Positions 1 to 5,118 of a stretch of DNA of 5,118 bases are shown piece after piece (the first letter of the stretch is position 1; every line of letters begins with the position of its first letter). Position numbers and translations under genes: made by a program. Source of the DNA: a virus (taxonomy: Duplodnaviria; Heunggongvirae; Uroviricota; Caudoviricetes); IMG/VR virus record IMGVR_UViG_2548876946_000011, positions 1 to 5,118 of that record; one strand, written 5' to 3'. A model generated the notes under the pieces. The model was not told the DNA's origin and made no database searches. It worked only from the letters and a program-made list of their open reading frames with translations.

Positions 1-128
1 AGAGCGTTTTTGTCGCTCGCAGCTGAATCCAGCCAGAATCCAAACTCAATATCCAGCGCATCAAAAAGCCAAAGCGGCGTTTGCCAGCAGTCCTTGTCGT
101 GTGCTGGCGTATTTGATTTGATAGTCAT
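1..128 (-). CDS. Partial CDS (first 42 codons; gene continues beyond the window start). nin-region protein whose N-terminus resembles phage Dam-type N6-adenine DNA methyltransferases
   Basis: Minus-strand ATG at 128..126 overlaps the ninB stop in an ATGA arrangement (plus 125-128 = tcat). Reverse-complement translation of 128..1 is MTIKSNTPAHDKDCWQTPLWLFDALDIEFGFWLDSAASDKNAL with no stop before the window edge. The D-x-W-x-TP...LF..L...FGF..D.AAS pattern is recalled from phage Dam-like methyltransferases; this is not a computed match. Not in the ORF track because it is truncated. Confidence 0.55.
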   Translation of the reverse strand, partial: MTIKSNTPAHDKDCWQTPLWLFDALDIEFGFWLDSAASDKNA

Positions 129-565
129 GCAGCCCGATCTCCCCATCGCGCTTTCCACTCCAGAGCCAGTCGCGCTTCGTCTGACCACTTAACGCCATGC
201 TCTGTACCAAATGCCTGTATAAGCTCTAATAGCTCCGCAAATTCGCTTACACGCATCCTGCTGGTTGACTGGCCTATTACCACAAAGCCATTCCCGGCAA
301 GGTTAGGAACAACGTCTTGCTGCTTTAATGCTGCGGTAAACACACACTTCCAGCTTTCTGCATCCAGCCAGCGACCATGCCATTCAACCTGACGAGAGAC
401 GTCACCTAAGCAGGCCCATAGCTTCCTGTTTTGGTCTAAGCTGCGGTTGCGTTCCTGAATGGTTACTACGATTGGTTTGGTTGGGTCTGGAAGGATTTGC
501 TGTACTGCGTGAATAGCGTTTTGCTGATGTGCTGGAGATCGAATTTCAAAGGTCAGTTTTTTCAT
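125..565 (-). CDS. ninB: NinB (Orf-family recombination mediator), 146 aa
   Basis: ORF-track protein from MKKLTFEIRSPAHQQNAIHAVQQILPDPTKPIVVTIQERNRSLDQNRKLWACLGD... matches lambda NinB as I remember it. Start chosen at ATG 565..563 (MKKLTF), preceded on the minus strand by GGGGGAGAGGGAAGTC as Shine-Dalgarno. The track's longer start at 583 (MGEREV) overlaps the upstream terminator T-tract and has no SD. Stop TGA at 127..125. Confidence 0.95.
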   Translation of the reverse strand: MKKLTFEIRSPAHQQNAIHAVQQILPDPTKPIVVTIQERNRSLDQNRKLWACLGDVSRQVEWHGRWLDAESWKCVFTAALKQQDVVPNLAGNGFVVIGQSTSRMRVSEFAELLELIQAFGTEHGVKWSDEARLALEWKARWGDRAA

Positions 566-580
566 GACTTCCCTCTCCCC

Positions 581-613
581 CAAATAAAAAGGCCTGCGAT
601 TACCAGCAGGCCT
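581..613 (-). terminator. Rho-independent terminator (lambda tR2-like) between the helicase gene and ninB
   Basis: On the minus strand, 8-bp GC-rich stem AGGCCTGC (613..606) pairs with GCAGGCCT (597..590) around an 8-nt loop, followed by TTTTTATTTG (589..580), 25 nt after the helicase stop. The ninB RBS follows immediately. Confidence 0.8.
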
Positions 614-638
614 GTTATTAGCTCAGTGATGTAGATGG

Positions 639-2015
639 TCATACGTCAGCCCCTTGTGCATATCGTCTGCCACGTGCAGCGGGTGCATTTGATGCTGTGC
701 AAATCTGTCTGGCTTCATCCTGGTCACATGCAACAAAGTGTCCGTTACAGAACCGCTGGTAAACCGTACCAAGCGAGCCAAAACGGTTTTTCGTCACGAT
801 GATTTCAGCAAATGGCGCGGCGCTACTGTTCTCGTCATATACCGCTTCCCGATAGAGCATGATGATTGAGTCTGCGTCCTGCTCAATGCTTCCTGAATCA
901 CGCAAATCTGCGTTTGTCGGGCGTTTGTTTGGTCGCTTCTCAACATCGCGCGAAAGCTGACTCAGGGAGATAACTGGCGTTTTCAGGTCTTTCGCCATCG
1001 CCTTAAGGCTTCCTGAGATGTGAGCAATTGCGAGGTCGTTGCGGTCTGCTTTCGGCTTCTCAATCAGGCCAAGATAATCCGCCATGATGAGTGAGAGGTT
1101 TGGATTTTCCTGTTTGTGCCGCTCTGCGATTGAGCGAATTTCTTCTACCGATAACCGCGAGGCATCGACTACCCATACATCCAAATCTGCAAGCTGACTC
1201 ATGCCGTTAGCAACACGCGCCCAGCCTTCGTCATCCATCGATGCAGGATTTCGCAGTACGCTAACCGACATCCTCCCGGCGTTGGCAATGCTTCGCTCTG
1301 CAATCTGCAATGCGCTCATTTCCATCGAGAAAATCAACACTCCGCGCCGGACGTCAGAACCAGGAATAACGCGGCTTGCCACGCCTTCGGCAATCTTCAG
1401 CGCCAGTTCGGTTTTCCCCATACCAGGACGAGCGGCGATTATCACCAGATCTTCCGCGTTCATCCCTCCGGTGATGGCATCAAGTTCTTCGATTCCGGTC
1501 TTCAGGGTATCGGACTCTTCTCCGTTCCTCAGACGCCTGTCAAGCGTGTCAGTGTAGTCAGTAATGATTTCCCCTAACCGTACAGGTTTTACCTCGTCAC
1601 GGGGCTTTCTGATGGCTGAAAGACGCTTTACAAGTTCATCCATCGCCTGACTCGATGCGTCGATGGTTCCGCTCTGAATTGGTTCACGCATTTCATCCAT
1701 GATTTCCAGCACCAGACGGCGGTGATAGTTATCCGCGACCATTCCGGCATATCCCTTCAGGTTTGCGGCACTCGGGCAGTTTTTGCTGGTCATCAGGATT
1801 GACGTGAAATGCTCCTCTCCGCACGCCTCGGCAACCATCAGCGCGTCGATTAGGTTTCTGTTTCGCGCCTGCTTGCGGATAACCTCGAAGGCTTTCCGGT
1901 AGAGCGGAATTGAAAACGCTTCCGGCTCCAGCGTTGCCAGAACGTCGCTGGCGGTTGGTGTTAATCCACCAATCAGCAAGCCACCGATAACGCTCGCTTC
2001 GATATCCTGTCTCAT
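639..2015 (-). CDS. Replicative DNA helicase, DnaB family (phage P22 gene 12-like), 458 aa
   Basis: Full-length ORF with Walker A motif [16 protein letters not shown], a RecA-like core ([31 protein letters not shown]) and a DnaB-like N-terminal region. Minus-strand RBS AGGGGGA upstream of ATG 2015..2013. The start overlaps the stop of the upstream O-like gene (ATGA), suggesting translational coupling. Confidence 0.95.
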
Positions 2016-2842
2016 GCAATCCCCCTGTCTGCAAACTTCCCTTCCCGTACTCCAGTTAACGAATCTTCCCTCAGCAGGTAATCAAAATCAGCTGTCCAGC
2101 CCGTGTCGTTGTCTCCGAAGTAAAACGGCTTGGCCTGATGCACAAACGCCCTGACATACGCTCTGAAACCGTCCACGTTTGGCGTTTTCAGTTGCGGGAT
2201 GATTTTCTTCAGGCGGCGTTTGCGTTTCTCGTTGACCGCAACAGCGTGTGGCAGTCTGTCACCGACTTCGGTGTTGTAGGCGTTCAGGAAGGATTCATAG
2301 TCGATTCGTTCTGCCTTGCGACGTTCAGGTTTAACCTGCCCATCGCCGCCCCCGTTAGGGGGTAAGGGGGTATTTGTATTTATTGTCTTTTGTATATTGT
2401 CTTTTGTGTTTGACTGATTCGGTAAATTGCTTTTTACCGATTTGGTGAAGGTTTGTTTTACCGAATTGGTAAATGTTTTACCGAATCCGTTAACTTTCGT
2501 TTTCCACTCGGAAATGTTTGTATTCATACCAACTTGACGCCCCACCTGAATGAGAACTCCCATTCTGATAAGCTCGTTTTTGGCGGTAGAGCATTTGGTT
2601 GGTGCCATGCCAGTGAGTTCAGCGAACTGTTCGTTTCCGATCCAATCTATTTTTTTGTTGTAACCGTATGTCTTGCGCCACACAGCCATAACAATCAGTA
2701 ACTGATGTAGAGTAAGTCCAGAAAGCATGGCGGCTTCTAACAGTGTGTTTGCAGTCCGAGTGTAGCCATCTTCGAGTTCTGCCACGCGATGCTCCACGAC
2801 CTCCAGTTGAGGCCTGTAATCAGCTAACTTAACGACGCCCAT
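2012..2842 (-). CDS. O: Replication initiation protein, lambda O / P22 gene 18-like, 276 aa
   Basis: N-terminal region ...[59 protein letters not shown]...[11 protein letters not shown]...NISEW resembles the lambda O N-terminal iteron-binding domain (remembered LDDGYARLSNMLLEAY...ILRKTYGWNK...ISEW). The gene contains the iteron/AT-rich origin. Strong RBS AGGAGTG upstream of ATG 2842..2840. A Pro/Gly linker ([10 protein letters not shown]) precedes the C-terminal domain, which is expected to recruit the helicase. Confidence 0.9.
2371..2493. other. Candidate phage origin of replication (ori-lambda-like): four iterons plus an adjacent ~40-bp AT-rich region inside the O-like gene
   Basis: Iterons at 2409..2493 are followed, in the direction of O transcription, by the AT-rich segment 2371..2408 (tatttgtatttattgtcttttgtatattgtcttttgtg). 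This is the same order and scale as the lambda origin inside O. Assignment is by architecture only. Confidence 0.75.
2409..2493. repeat. Iteron array, 4 copies of an ~18-bp partially palindromic repeat (consensus about TTTTACCGAATTGGTAAA)
   Basis: Copies at 2409..2426 (tttgactgattcggtaaa), 2432..2449 (ttttaccgatttggtgaa), 2456..2473 (ttttaccgaattggtaaa) and 2476..2493 (ttttaccgaatccgttaa), spaced 23, 24 and 20 bp. Each has TTACC/GGTAA dyad arms. They encode a repeated peptide in the O-like protein ([16 protein letters not shown]). Confidence 0.75.
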
Positions 2843-2990
2843 GTTTCACTCCTGCTTTGGCTAGTCTGTAAACACCAACAAGGCGCTCTGCGAACGCCCT
2901 GTTATTTGCTGCGGCTACCACTAATCCCTCAGGTGAATCAGGGTGTCGAATCTCTTCTTTTTCCTGGTATTTCTTACGACGTTTTGTCAT
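2829..2990 (-). CDS. Hypothetical small basic protein, 53 aa, between cII and the O-like gene
   Basis: Not in the ORF track (below its length cutoff). Minus-strand ATG at 2990..2988 is preceded by AGGAGT with 5-nt spacing. My translation is [53 protein letters not shown], with stop TAA at 2831..2829 overlapping the first codons of the O-like gene. No homology is claimed. Confidence 0.4.
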   Translation of the reverse strand: MTKRRKKYQEKEEIRHPDSPEGLVVAAANNRAFAERLVGVYRLAKAGVKHGRR

Positions 2991-2999
2991 AATTACTCC

Positions 3000-3079
3000 T
3001 GTGGATTGATCCAGTAATTCCCTCAGAATTGCATATCAATTTGCTTAAAATCCTCGGTGGCGGCCGGGGATTTTTTCTT
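3000..3079 (+). ncRNA. Candidate OOP-like antisense RNA (about 80 nt), antisense to the 3' end of cII
   Basis: Plus-strand extended -10 motif TGtCATAAT (2985..2993) gives a predicted start near 3000. A strong intrinsic terminator at 3046..3079 lies inside the cII 3' coding region on the opposite strand. Position and size mirror lambda OOP RNA. Inference only. Confidence 0.35.
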
Positions 3080-3319
3080 TGTGATTTCATCAAGCGCATA
3101 CTTAAAAGCCCTGCTAATCGGACTGATGTCTGATGCCATTCCGAAAGCACACAAGACCGAAGCAATAAATCTCCAGTCCGTTCTGCTTATCTTCGATTCA
3201 TGACAGCCAATCATCTTTGCCAGACCGCGCTGGGTAAGCGTTGACAGGTTGATGAGTAAATCTGTTTCTGCGCGATCAATTTCTCGCTGTGTTGGCTTGC
3301 TGTAACTTGCTTGTGTCAT
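3023..3319 (-). CDS. cII: CII-type transcriptional activator (lysogeny establishment), 98 aa
   Basis: ORF-track protein ends ...DEITKKKSPAATEDFKQIDMQF, resembling the lambda CII C-terminus (...NKKRPAATERSEQIQMEF as recalled), with a central HTH-like segment (LAKMIGCHESKISR). It sits between cro and O as in lambdoid phages. A TTGC-N6-TTGC motif lies antisense within its 5' end. Confidence 0.88.
   Translation of the reverse strand: MTQASYSKPTQREIDRAETDLLINLSTLTQRGLAKMIGCHESKISRTDWRFIASVLCAFGMASDISPISRAFKYALDEITKKKSPAATEDFKQIDMQF
3046..3079 (+). terminator. Rho-independent terminator on the plus strand inside the cII 3' end (candidate OOP terminator)
   Basis: Stem 3049..3056 (atcctcgg) pairs with 3063..3070 (ccggggat): 8 bp including one G-U. 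Loop is tggcgg, followed by TTTTTTCTTT (3070..3079). A-T extensions on both flanks (3046..3048 / 3071..3073) could allow some bidirectional function. Confidence 0.65.
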
Positions 3320-3329
3320 TTCTTAATAT
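3297..3329 (+). promoter_or_regulatory. Candidate pRE-like CII-activated promoter (TTGC-N6-TTGC plus -10)
   Basis: TTGC (3297..3300), spacer tgtaac, TTGC (3307..3310), then 13 nt and TAATAT (3324..3329). It lies antisense in the first codons of cII and points toward cro (antisense) and cI. The geometry matches lambda pRE as I recall it. Confidence 0.6.
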
Positions 3330-3404
3330 TTCCAATAGTGAATAGTTAGTTGAAAGGTATGCGTGGAAACGCATATGGCCTTAGTTGGTCAGATATATTG
3401 GGAC

Positions 3405-3450
3405 TCGCTTTTCAGCGACGTAGGACGAATGTCCGTTGTTACAAAGAGCG
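3405..3450 (-). promoter_or_regulatory. Candidate nutR (boxA plus boxB-like hairpin) just downstream of cro
   Basis: Minus-strand boxA CGCTCTTT (plus 3450..3443) begins 12 nt after the cro stop. Then gtaacaac, a small hairpin GGACattcGTCC, tacg, and the boxB-like hairpin TCGCtgaaaaGCGA (plus 3418..3405). The same boxA-aacaac-hairpin-tacg-boxB layout recurs at the candidate nutL. Confidence 0.55.
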
Positions 3451-3460
3451 GACCCGCTTA

Positions 3461-3676
3461 TTAAGCAGCTTTGTGTTCCGGCGGGAACACGTCATCAAGA
3501 CTGACTTTTGCGCCTAACTTGTTTAGGCACTCAACAAGAGCACGGCATGTTTTAAGGTCTGGGAAGCGACGACCAGATTCCCAATGTCCGATAGCTCCCT
3601 GTGTGCATCCAACTGCCTTAGCAAGTGTTGTTTGAGAGATATTCAGTGACTCTCGATATTTTCGTAGGTTGCTCAT
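3461..3676 (-). CDS. cro: Cro-type HTH repressor, 71 aa
   Basis: Small HTH protein MSNLRKYRESLNISQTTLAKAVGCTQGAIGHWESGRRFPDLKTCRALVECLNKLG... divergent from cI, with a recognition helix very similar to that of the cI here (TQGAIGHW vs TQGGIGHW). Start at ATG 3676..3674 has an upstream GGAGGG. The track's longer start at 3703 lacks an SD and lies upstream of the predicted pR start. Confidence 0.85.
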   Translation of the reverse strand: MSNLRKYRESLNISQTTLAKAVGCTQGAIGHWESGRRFPDLKTCRALVECLNKLGAKVSLDDVFPPEHKAA

Positions 3677-3702
3677 ATGCCCTCCATAGTAACCATAACA
3701 CA

Positions 3703-3731
3703 ATAATACGATATGTACTTTTAGAATGCAA
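3703..3731 (-). promoter_or_regulatory. Candidate pR promoter driving cro
   Basis: Minus strand: -35 TTGCAT (plus 3731..3726), 17-nt spacer, -10 TATTAT (plus 3708..3703). The spacer (tctaaaagtacatatcg) is nearly identical to the pL spacer (cagtaaagtacacatcg). Confidence 0.65.
3705..3719. promoter_or_regulatory. Candidate operator (OR1-like) overlapping the pR spacer and -10
   Basis: Minus-strand sequence AGTACatatcGTATT, half-site pattern AGTAC-N5-GTAyT. Same motif and same position relative to the promoter as the pL site at 4586..4600. Confidence 0.5.
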
Positions 3732-3764
3732 ACAAAAAATACATCTTGTGCATGGATGATTTTA

Positions 3765-3779
3765 GTACAGAGCGTAATA
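3765..3779. promoter_or_regulatory. Candidate operator (OR3-like) next to the cI start, overlapping a possible pRM -10
   Basis: Plus strand AGTACagagcGTAAT fits AGTAC-N5-GTAnT. A weaker possible middle site AATACatcttGTGCA lies at 3738..3752. A possible pRM -10 TAATAA at 3775..3780 would put the start near ATG 3788. Confidence 0.4.
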
Positions 3780-3787
3780 ATAAGGGT

Positions 3788-4447
3788 ATGAAAATGAAAT
3801 GGTATGAACTGGCTAGATCCAGAATGAAAGAGCTAGGCATAACTCAAGAGAAGTTAGCTGAAGAGCTTGGTATGACGCAGGGTGGAATTGGTCACTGGTT
3901 GCGCGGATCTCGTCATCCATCTCTTGACGAGATTGGTGTGGTGTTTAAATACCTTGGTATTGATAACGTCTCATTCAACCACGACGGTACATTTTCACCT
4001 GTTGGCGAATACTCATCTGCCCCCGTTAAAAAACAATATGAGTACCCTGTTTTTTCTCATGTTCAGGCCGGGATGTTCTCGCCTGAGCTTAGAACCTTTA
4101 CCAAAGGTGATGCGGAGAGATGGGTCAGCACAACCAAAAAAGCCAGTGATTGTGCGTTTTGGCTTGAAGTTGAAGGTAATTCCATGACCGCGCCAACAGG
4201 ATCCAAGCCAAGCTTTCCTGACGGGATGTTAATTCTCGTTGACCCTGAGCAGGCTGTTGAGCCAGGTGATTTCTGCATAGCCAGACTTGGTGGTGACGAG
4301 TTTACCTTCAAGAAACTGATCAGGGATAGCGGTCAGGTGTTCCTACAACCACTAAATCCGCAATATCCAATGATTCCATGCAATGATAGCTGTTCCGTAG
4401 TAGGGAAAGTTATCGCCAGCCAGTGGCCTGAAGAGACATTTAGTTAA
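3788..4447 (+). CDS. cI: CI-type prophage repressor (HTH N-domain plus LexA/S24-like autocleavage C-domain)
   Basis: C-terminal portion [52 protein letters not shown]...[15 protein letters not shown] is almost identical to the lambda cI C-terminal domain as I remember it, including the Ser (GNSMTAP) and Lys (FKKLI) catalytic context. The N-terminal HTH ([23 protein letters not shown]) is unlike lambda. Start is uncertain: the longest ORF begins at 3746, but 3788 (MKMKW) or 3794 keeps the candidate operators in the intergenic region. AAGGG lies 7 nt before the 3794 ATG. Confidence 0.93.
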
Positions 4448-4477
4448 CAGCCTCACCACTCTAAAACACACAACAAT

Positions 4478-4507
4478 AACCCGACCTTAGCGTCGGGTTT
4501 TCTTTTT
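4478..4507 (+). terminator. Rho-independent terminator immediately downstream of cI
   Basis: Stem aacccgac (4478..4485) pairs with gtcgggtt (4492..4499), 6-nt loop cttagc, T-tract ttttcttttt (4498..4507). It begins 31 nt after the cI stop. Confidence 0.8.
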
Positions 4508-4573
4508 CCAAAATATAAATCAATAAAATACAAAGTGTTATAAAAAACTAAACCATATTTAGAACATTTTGTA

Positions 4574-4602
4574 TTGACTCAGTAAAGTACACATCGTACT
4601 AT
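4574..4602 (+). promoter_or_regulatory. Candidate pL promoter with embedded operator (OL1-like, 4586..4600)
   Basis: -35 TTGACT (4574..4579), 17-nt spacer, -10 TACTAT (4597..4602). A near-perfect inverted repeat AGTACacatcGTACT (4586..4600) spans the spacer and -10. A weaker site AGAACattttGTATT (4561..4575) is centred 25 bp upstream and overlaps the -35. Confidence 0.7.
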
Positions 4603-4647
4603 TTAGCCATCAGCAGGAAGCTGGAAGCCAAACGGAACAGACTGGCA

Positions 4648-4694
4648 TGCTCTTTAAACAACGTCGAGCACTCGACTACGTGGCTGAAAAGCCA
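4648..4694 (+). promoter_or_regulatory. Candidate nutL (boxA plus boxB-like hairpin) in the pL leader
   Basis: boxA-like TGCTCTTTAA (4648..4657), then acaac, hairpin GTCGAgcacTCGAC (4663..4676), tacg, and boxB-like TGGCtgaaaaGCCA (4681..4694). Architecture parallels the candidate nutR. Confidence 0.55.
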
Positions 4695-4792
4695 GATCAC
4701 CCAACCACATGAGCTGTGGGATGCAATGCCGAAGCAACCGTCTCAGGAAGAGCTTCGAGATTGCATCACCAAAGTTTATTCGGGAGGAATCT

Positions 4793-5065
4793 ATGTCCAG
4801 AAAAACAGAATTTAAAGGCACCTCAGCTTCTCGTCGTAGAGCTCGTCGCGCAAACCTGCAAAGTCAGGAGGCGATTAGCTCCGACAAGCTACACAGACCA
4901 ACCCCCTCACGAGTGGTCTTGCAATGTAAGCGCAAACCAGCAATGAGAGCAGAAGTAATAACACTGACAACGCTGACCAGAAAATATGAAGGCTCAACTT
5001 GTCTTCCAAACGTAGCTCTTTACGCGGCAGGCTACCGGAAATCCAAACAACTGACAGCAAGATGA
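4793..5065 (+). CDS. N: N-type transcription antitermination protein, 90 aa
   Basis: N-terminal arginine-rich motif MSRKTEFKGTSASRRRARRANLQSQEA is typical of lambdoid N proteins (remembered lambda MDAQTRRRERRAEKQAQW). The gene lies downstream of the pL-like promoter and nutL-like site. Start at ATG 4793 has SD GGGAGGA 5 nt upstream. The track's upstream start at 4709 has no SD. Confidence 0.8.
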   Translation: MSRKTEFKGTSASRRRARRANLQSQEAISSDKLHRPTPSRVVLQCKRKPAMRAEVITLTTLTRKYEGSTCLPNVALYAAGYRKSKQLTAR

Positions 5066-5118
5066 CTTGTGTTGGTCGCCAGAAAATGAAATTAGGCAGC
5101 AAACCACTTATTTGAGGT

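Follow-up and report, generated by a model that had tools for sequence, protein, structure and literature searches.

A small gene matching HK97 gene 53 lies between cII and the replication initiator of lambdoid phages and is associated with helicase-type replication modules

Results

Gene organization of the window

The DNA analysed here, referred to as the window, is a stretch of 5,118 nucleotides (positions 1 to 5,118 of the IMG/VR virus record IMGVR_UViG_2548876946_000011, Caudoviricetes). It represents a lambdoid early-right region that is read on the minus strand, with the following genes and features:

cI, 3746–4447, plus strand, gene of the lambdoid early-right region
cro, 3461–3703, minus strand, gene of the lambdoid early-right region
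cII of the lambda type, 3023–3319, minus strand, upstream neighbour of the small ORF (Pfam Phage_CII, E 4e-33)
Small ORF of 53 aa, 2829–2990, minus strand, placed by sequence match in the HK97 gene 53/Sf6 gene 42/ES18 gp58 family (phrog_1331)
O-like replication initiator, 2012–2842, minus strand (Pfam Phage_rep_O, E 4e-36; phrog_345)
ori iterons, about 2407–2503, direct repeats within the O-like gene
Phage DnaB-family helicase, 639–2015, minus strand, partner gene of the module (Pfam DnaB_C, E 1e-77, together with a DnaB N-terminal domain)
NinB, 125–583, minus strand, named after the ninB annotation in matching phages

The distance between cII and the initiator is 180 nt in the window and 32 nt in lambda, which bears out the gap of about 180 bp, lacking in lambda, that had been pointed out in an earlier reading of this DNA (the sequence-only reading). 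The gap was said to contain an ORF encoding 53 amino acids at 2829–2990 on the minus strand, and the translation is exactly as it was then quoted. The length of 53 codons is by itself not beyond chance for the window, in which there are 54 ORFs of at least 30 aa. The usual listing threshold of 60 aa exceeds the length of the product and probably explains why the small ORF is absent from the ORF track.

The small ORF corresponds to HK97 gene 53

The encoded protein is 100% identical in amino-acid sequence to Gp53 of phage HK97 (AAF31131; GenBank AF069529), and also to Sf6 gp42 and to the counterparts in dozens of lambdoid and P22-like phages of E. coli, Salmonella and Shigella. It matches phrog_1331, a family without assigned function, over its full length (residues 1–53 of 53, E 1.4e-37). 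HK97 Gp53, Sf6 gene 42, ES18 gp58, epsilon34 gp49 and g341c gp44 all agree with the window in sequence, length, slot and overlap with the initiator, and between HK97 Gp53 and the window ORF there is no difference. Judged by these matches, the window ORF is the same gene, i.e., the already annotated HK97 gene 53, and the window adds nothing to the existing annotation. The ORF slot between cII/oop and the initiator has also been described before, by Hayes et al. 2012 (PMC3349717). The identity with HK97 gene 53, the location of the start codon inside the pO/oop cassette (see below) and the presence of the slot in the literature (PMC3349717) had escaped the sequence-only reading.

Matches to the window ORF are found in 97 phage records, 61 of which are at least 99% identical. 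Of 5426 complete E. coli genomes, 571 (~10%) furthermore carry the ORF DNA, nearly always at a nucleotide identity of at least 99% (566 of 573 matching records), and the carriers include Stx prophages of O157:H7. PGAP labels the E. coli copies 'hypothetical protein'. Relatives with identities down to about 57% are restricted to phages and prophages of Enterobacterales, and when 1.84 billion cluster representatives were searched exhaustively with an HMM, only 24 relatives were returned, all of 29–84 aa, none of which is a fusion of Gp53 to a known domain or a larger protein.

Gene 53 is under purifying selection

Among 80 viral loci that encode an identical protein, all nucleotide differences are synonymous; this pattern was discarded as circular, since the loci had been chosen for 100% protein identity, and selection was therefore assessed on 17 distinct divergent Enterobacterales copies, comprising the window and prophages of Edwardsiella, Trabulsiella, Yokenella, Enterobacter, Citrobacter, Chimaeribacter, Serratia, Rahnella, Brenneria and others. 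In these 17 copies, mean pN is 0.20 and mean pS 0.62, and the annotated frame has a median dN/dS of 0.18, against 1.7 and 2.4 for the two sense frames that are shifted. At the three codon positions, 36, 29 and 54 of 57 sites, respectively, are variable. The conserved residues P20, A27, A34 and A44 are each encoded by four different codons, and L23, A27, F33, A34 and R36 are invariant though synonymous sites are near saturation. One antisense frame also gives a low ratio; it shares wobble positions with the sense frame and is not open in the window.

All indels among the divergent copies comprise whole codons, and frame, start and stop are kept in 100 of 100 loci. Conservation of the frame in lambdoid and P22-like phages, which the sequence-only reading had proposed as a check, is thus what was found, with a dN/dS of 0.18 and indels that stay in frame. 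The small ORF is a genuine protein-coding gene under purifying selection, which in turn means that the peptide itself matters.

The start codon of gene 53 lies within the pO/oop boundary cassette

The 5′ end of gene 53 and the adjoining 3′ end of cII contain the following elements:

Boundary cassette of 33 nt (Sf6 'bsq5'; 'sequence 5' of the HK620 paper), 2983–3015, minus strand, comprising SD, ATG and initial codons of the small ORF, from alignment with lambda and Sf6
Shine-Dalgarno (SD) sequence AGGAGT of the small ORF, 2995–3000, minus strand, read in the sequence
ATG of the small ORF, 2988–2990, minus strand, inside the boundary cassette
Predicted extended −10 element TGTCATAAT of pO for an oop-like RNA, 2985–2993, plus strand, from homology to the lambda pO −10
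Antisense RNA resembling oop, about 77 nt long, 3001–3077, plus strand, overlapping the 3′ end of cII, from alignment with lambda oop (complement 38599–38675)

The SD is located 4 nt from the ATG, or 5 nt when counted from the GGAG core, in agreement with the near-ideal SD at 5-nt spacing reported in the sequence-only reading. In the alignment with lambda and Sf6, lambda O and the small ORF share ACTGGATC.ATC.ACAGGAGT.ATTATGACAAA, and the region from which lambda O is initiated is homologous to the SD, ATG and initial 8 nt (ACTGGATCAATCCACAGGAGTAATTATGACAAA) of the small ORF. It follows from this homology that the small ORF starts exactly at the start site of lambda O. The cassette itself is annotated as boundary sequence bsq5 in the Sf6 record AF547987. 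Hayes et al. 2012 described a 33-bp conserved pO/oop block and mutated the lambda pO −10 at lambda 38684–38688, and the 'sequence 5' of the HK620 paper, which is cited there, is this same boundary block (PMC3349717).

On the opposite strand, the CAT within TGTCATAAT is the complement of the start codon of the small ORF. The pO −35 region would fall in ORF codons 7–9, where the match to the consensus is poor and the sequence differs from that of lambda. A generic sigma-70 promoter scan of the window did not call pO, which is hence assigned as a promoter by its homology with the lambda and P22 sequences; in the P22 annotation, the oop promoter extends across the start of orf48. An oop-like RNA would be transcribed from the predicted pO. 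Its terminator hairpin at 3047–3074 is followed by a T run, and the RNA is predicted to assume a two-hairpin fold (z = −4.1). An Rfam scan of the window with E up to 1 returned nothing, and oop was accordingly identified by alignment with lambda.

The cII-oop-O junction of lambda resembles the window in having an SD and an ATG after a 32-nt spacer that follows cII, the same first coding nucleotides (8 nt, ATGACAAA), the pO −10 and an oop-like RNA with its terminator. In lambda, however, the cassette ATG opens O itself (MTNTAKIL...), which is followed by the loader gene P, whereas in the window it opens a 53-codon gene; the initiator, whose N-terminus is different, begins 149 nt downstream of this ATG. 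The −35 region of pO is not the same either.

The 3′ end of gene 53 overlaps the initiator gene

At the other end of the small ORF, and in its central part, the following elements are relevant:

Junction with the initiator, 2829–2853, minus strand, read in the sequence
Initiator SD AGGAG with a 6-nt spacer, 2849–2853, minus strand, within the last codons of the small ORF
Initiator ATG, 2840–2842, minus strand
Stop codon TAA of the small ORF, 2829–2831, minus strand
Overlap of the small ORF and the initiator gene, 14 nt, 2829–2842, minus strand
Possible conserved mRNA hairpin of 7 bp at codons 31–37 (AGGGCGUUCGCAGAGCGCCUU), 2880–2900, minus strand, from an alignment fold

The stop codon had been proposed to overlap the start codon of the O-like gene, which is not the case; the stop occupies 2829–2831 and the start 2840–2842, so that the initiator ATG lies 11 nt upstream of the stop, and it is the two reading frames that overlap. 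This overlap amounts to 14 nt in 98 of 100 loci and to 17 nt in two Rahnella loci, and the corresponding overlap between orf48 and gene 18 of P22 is 8 nt. From this gene geometry we infer that translational coupling from the small ORF to the initiator is plausible. However, the initiator has a strong SD of its own, and no mRNA structure that hides this SD was detected, either as a local fold (z = −1.16, not significant) or as a conserved masking helix in the alignment fold, and coupling may thus be unnecessary. The earlier proposal of coupled translation into O hence retains the backing of a conserved overlap, including that in P22, and gains none from the structure around the initiator SD.

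The possible hairpin at codons 31–37 is 99% paired across 17 sequences and contains two covarying pairs, and the observed value was reached in 0 of 500 shuffles; its status is uncertain, as the Phe-Ala-Glu codons dictate the inner pairs and a single evolutionary event, or one clade, may account for the covariation.

Gene 53 is part of a portable block

Window and Sf6 are 100% identical at the nucleotide level from about position 3015 to about position 2812, with no similarity outside these limits, which defines the mobile unit, about 205 bp long, as the cassette together with the ORF and the initial 10 codons of the initiator. One further element is thereby added to those listed above:

First 10 initiator codons, 2813–2842, minus strand, travelling with the small ORF, the same N-terminus being present on three kinds of initiator

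The 10-residue N-terminus is common to initiators of the HK97/P22 gp18-like, the Sf6 gp43-like and the lambda-O N-domain kind, the third of which was found behind Gp53 in the cassette census described below. It may resemble a ClpX N-degron. On the downstream side, gene 53 is followed by an HK97/P22 gp18-like initiator in 49 loci and by an Sf6 gp43-like initiator in 44, and these two families are unrelated. On the upstream side, a P22 c1-like cII is present in 90 loci and a lambda cII-like gene in 3, including the window; in the divergent prophages of Serratia, Rahnella and Brenneria, the gene upstream of gene 53 is not cII.

The O protein of epsilon34/ES18 matches lambda O only from residue 17 (epsilon34 paper), and classical lambda/P22 hybrids part from lambda just past the boundary block (PMC3349717). 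The lambdoid boundary or linker sequences (HK620 'sequence 5', Sf6 bsq5) are, like the cassette in the window, short conserved blocks where the immunity/cII and replication modules join; unlike these 33-nt linkers, the conserved block in the window is much longer and takes in an entire gene and 30 nt of the one that follows.

Occupants of the slot and type of replication module

In 92 of 95 Gp53 loci, including the Serratia, Rahnella and Brenneria prophages, the initiator is followed by a DnaB-family helicase. For the cassette census, viral contigs were scanned for the exact cassette, and the loci, at least 119 in number, were sorted by what the cassette ATG opens:

Lambda-type O directly, at least 46 loci; initiator MTNTAKILNF...; followed by lambda P in 32 loci and 2 more with split O, by an IstB/DnaC-like loader in 2, the rest incomplete
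Gp53, at least 46 loci; initiator with the shared 10-residue start; followed by a DnaB-family helicase in 34 loci, by a Toprim + DnaB_C primase-helicase in 3, the rest incomplete
P22 orf48 (Pfam DUF2740), at least 26 loci; initiator starting MSNLATV or MSNISNL; followed by a DnaB helicase in 13 loci, by a Toprim-helicase in 7, the rest incomplete or unidentified
T5orf172 moron, at least 3 loci; other initiator start; followed by a DnaC-like loader

Among the cassette matches listed, Gp53 or orf48 is followed by a helicase in at least 57 loci and by a loader in none. Conversely, modules with lambda P or a DnaC-like loader have neither Gp53 nor orf48 in front of them among the matches listed, at least 36 of these loci being devoid of any small ORF at this place, and self-helicase modules without one of the two in front are likewise absent from these cassette matches. 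After clustering, the matches listed correspond to only about three independent helicase-type and about two loader-type module families, and each helicase-type family among them occurs with both Gp53 and orf48. In the same set of matches, orf48 replaces Gp53 in front of initiator and helicase pairs that cluster at 95% identity or more, an exchange that fits functional analogy and dispensability alike, and the presence of the T5orf172 moron in the same slot shows that the site tolerates unrelated cargo. The association between Gp53 and the helicase applies to cassette-bearing contigs and might be due to common descent and linkage, not to function. It is the only new lead that emerges from the present analysis; helicases are not mentioned by Hayes et al. 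2012 (PMC3349717).

P22 orf48 (DUF2740, PF10872; phrog_1913; hkaW in HK620 and orf48 in HK022) has much in common with Gp53: it occupies the same slot, uses the cassette ATG, is overlapped at its start by the oop promoter, is close in size (48 aa), overlaps the initiator start with its stop (8 nt) and precedes the same initiator and helicase families. However, the two proteins have no detectable sequence relationship (hhalign probability 0.05 for the Gp53 alignment versus orf48). Whereas orf48 matches DUF2740 at 2e-28, the window ORF lacks any Pfam match with E up to 1, and the initiators behind orf48 begin with MSNLATV or MSNISNL, unlike those behind Gp53. Assignment of the window ORF to DUF2740 was considered and is ruled out by the missing PF10872 match and the hhalign result, which leaves an analogy of position only.

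Features of the Gp53 protein

The conserved core of Gp53 comprises residues 12–44 (EE.RHPDSP.GLVVAA.N..FAERL.G..RLA), within which third codon positions vary. Residues 2–11 are the least conserved part, yet still rich in Lys and Arg. An AlphaFold model based on a 35-sequence alignment predicts, with moderate confidence (mean pLDDT 68), a disordered basic region of 20 residues at the N-terminus and two helices, residues 21–29 and 31–49. No matches to this model were obtained with Foldseek in the PDB and BFVD, and searches with the Gp53 sequence in Pfam (E up to 1), NCBIfam, PADLOC and PDB sequence profiles gave no match.

The basic N-terminus had been suggested in the sequence-only reading to bind nucleic acid. 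This suggestion is not sustained by our data; a recognisable DNA- or RNA-binding domain or fold was not found in Pfam, NCBIfam and PDB sequences or with Foldseek in the PDB and BFVD, and the segment in question is the one with the lowest conservation. Two subtypes of Gp53 can be distinguished, one of 53 aa and one of 55 aa with a two-residue insert, which do not track the type of initiator or helicase. The lack of such tracking speaks against a partner specific to one module and in favour of a common target, which may belong to the host. Literature searches on gp53, orf48 and DUF2740 returned no functional, expression or interaction data for Gp53 and no function for orf48/DUF2740.

Discussion

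To our knowledge, no helicase loader has been described for the P22- and HK97-type replication modules, which combine an initiator with a DnaB-like helicase of the phage. The delivery of this helicase to the origin is far less well understood than that in the lambda O-P system. A protein of 48–55 aa that is hard-wired to the start codon of the initiator, and that is confined to self-helicase modules among the cassette matches listed, would be a candidate for the missing loader role.

The reading that we favour, with confidence somewhat above even, is that gene 53 constitutes the first cistron in a portable front end of lambdoid replication modules with a helicase of their own, that it is probably coupled translationally, and that it encodes a small protein acting in trans. 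Ribosomes would enter at the SD/ATG cassette, which lambda uses directly for O and whose opposite strand carries the oop 5′ end together with the −10 of pO; they would translate 53 codons and terminate 11 nt past the initiator AUG, inside the conserved 14-nt overlap, and translation of the initiator would probably be coupled to, or tuned by, that of the small gene. The product, as far as can be judged from a model of moderate confidence, would be small and basic, with a helical core that is conserved and a tail, rich in Lys and Arg, that is poorly conserved. Identical Gp53 is found with unrelated initiators, with helicases that are only about 30% identical and with two types of cII, which makes a common target likelier than a module-specific partner, and we infer that Gp53 most likely acts in trans on such a target, probably either a component of host replication or a step that is specific to the use of a phage-borne helicase. 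A more far-reaching proposal would be that Gp53 and the unrelated DUF2740/orf48 are analogous factors required by self-helicase modules, which might stand in for a P/DnaC-type loader in loading or recruiting the phage helicase, or might neutralise the host DnaB/DnaC pathway, with coupled translation fixing their stoichiometry with the initiator; we regard this proposal as doubtful.

The main rival to a front-end cistron is accessory cargo in a permissive slot, i.e., that Gp53 is a moron-like protein unrelated to replication, serving for example host takeover or anti-defence, and that it occupies a slot immediately behind the conserved cassette which permits recombination, being inherited along with self-helicase modules. 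The variety of unrelated occupants (Gp53, orf48/DUF2740, the T5orf172 protein, or nothing), the lack of covariation between Gp53 and the type of initiator or helicase, the narrow orphan family without a known domain, and the early-expressed position, which is typical of small host-directed phage proteins, are all as expected for cargo. Nevertheless, cargo would not readily account for a rigidly kept stop/start overlap and for 10 initiator codons that travel along; Gp53 also remains linked to the initiator and helicase in loci with a gene other than cII upstream, and is never combined with loader-type modules among the matches listed, despite extensive shuffling in the region. We consider cargo possible, though on the whole unlikely. 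Should gene 53 turn out to be merely cargo, or a leader as discussed next, its value would be smaller, namely that of a well-defined mosaic joint that carries a whole gene.

The selection pattern is a poor fit for explanations in which the peptide plays no part. A cistron that functions as a leader only, whose act of translation sets the level of the initiator or affects the activity of pO/oop while the peptide is functionless, would agree with the conserved geometry of the overlap, with the location of the initiator SD inside the last codons of the ORF, and with the existence of two unrelated peptides (48 and 53–55 aa) that share this position and overlap the initiator in a like manner. A pure spacer, however, would not conserve residues, and the strong purifying selection on the amino-acid sequence across genera (dN/dS 0.18), together with the invariance of L23, A27, F33, A34 and R36 where synonymous sites approach saturation, renders this explanation improbable. 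Highly improbable, and largely refuted by the frame-specific selection test, is the view that the block is conserved non-coding DNA or RNA (a recombination linker, the pO promoter or an RNA structure) in which the open frame is incidental. It could draw on the 100% nucleotide identity of a block of about 205 bp between unrelated flanks, on the 566 of 573 E. coli records that are at least 99% identical, on the pO −10 that overlaps the start codon and on the possible covarying hairpin at codons 31–37; but third positions are near saturation while the protein is conserved, a signal that shifted and antisense frames do not share, except for the wobble-sharing antisense frame that is not open in the window, and indels are all multiples of three, with frame, start and stop kept in 100 of 100 loci.

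Two minor points concern the naming of orf48. The 'orf48:gnarl1' of Silas et al. 2025 was considered as a possible P22 orf48 and rejected, as the number belongs to the screen's own numbering and the source is a lytic phage. In RefSeq and PHROGs, the orf48 family is labelled 'tail protein', which seems to be a mistaken annotation.

Association of the initiator N-terminus with the small ORF

The first ten residues of the O-like initiator (window 2813–2842, minus strand) are the same on three different initiator families and move together with the small ORF (HK97 gene 53, Gp53), as observed in the window, at the compared loci L001 and L132, and at other loci. Initiators preceded by P22 orf48 begin with MSNLATV or MSNISNL; where no small ORF is present, the initiator begins with MTNTAKILNF. 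GVVKL in the Gp53-linked N-terminus may resemble the N-terminal ClpX recognition motif of lambda O (TNTAKI).

The site 3' of the boundary cassette takes unrelated cargo, since in two viral contigs, L143 and L180, a 214-residue T5orf172/MUG113-domain protein lies directly 3' of the cassette, in the slot of Gp53, and is followed by a lambda-like O together with a DnaC/IstB-like loader.

Possible RNA elements and putative origin

The features discussed here are listed below by window position.

Features in the window
2407–2503, plus-strand coordinates: putative origin iterons, direct repeats inside the O-like gene
2880–2900, minus strand: short mRNA hairpin (AGGGCGUUCGCAGAGCGCCUU) over the most conserved codons of the small ORF, R-A-F-A-E-R-L
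3001–3077, plus strand: predicted oop-like antisense RNA, ~77 nt, from alignment with lambda
3047–3074, plus strand: intrinsic terminator of the oop-like RNA

Across 17 divergent sequences, 99% of cells in the small-ORF hairpin are paired, and a synonymous third-position change in Arg is matched by a first-position change in Ala/Pro; the hairpin may be an RNA element, or else a by-product of the codons. The oop-like RNA contains two hairpins and overlaps the 3' end of cII; an Rfam scan of the window gave no match, and this RNA is recognised by the lambda alignment only.

The direct repeats of TTTTACCGA(A/T)T..GGT, of which there are three to four at a spacing of 20–24 nt, are likely to be origin iterons. 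Their placement within the O-like gene is the same as in lambda, P22 and Sf6, and they also code for a repeated 15-residue peptide.

Annotation and assignment of records

In RefSeq and in PHROG phrog_1913, P22 orf48 (Pfam DUF2740; P22 locus L101, 1350–1496; NP_059609) is labeled 'tail protein'. This label is implausible for a 48-residue gene located in the early operon between c1 and gene 18, and probably represents an annotation error that has been propagated. Annotation of the small ORF is inconsistent between records, as several deposited genomes, i.e., IME10 (JN600960/NC_019501), ENT47670 (NC_019927), 2851 (NC_049943) and YYZ-2008, do not annotate it separately; in these, the match falls within a feature called 'O protein' or replication protein, or where no feature is annotated. 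This enterobacterial phage module is also found in the metagenome-assembled 'Bacillota bacterium' contig JAEZIN010000021 (L003; 100% protein identity) and in 'Chryseobacterium sp. 18061' CACSKA010000001 (L006; 83%), and the non-enterobacterial assignment of both contigs likely reflects contamination or mis-binning.
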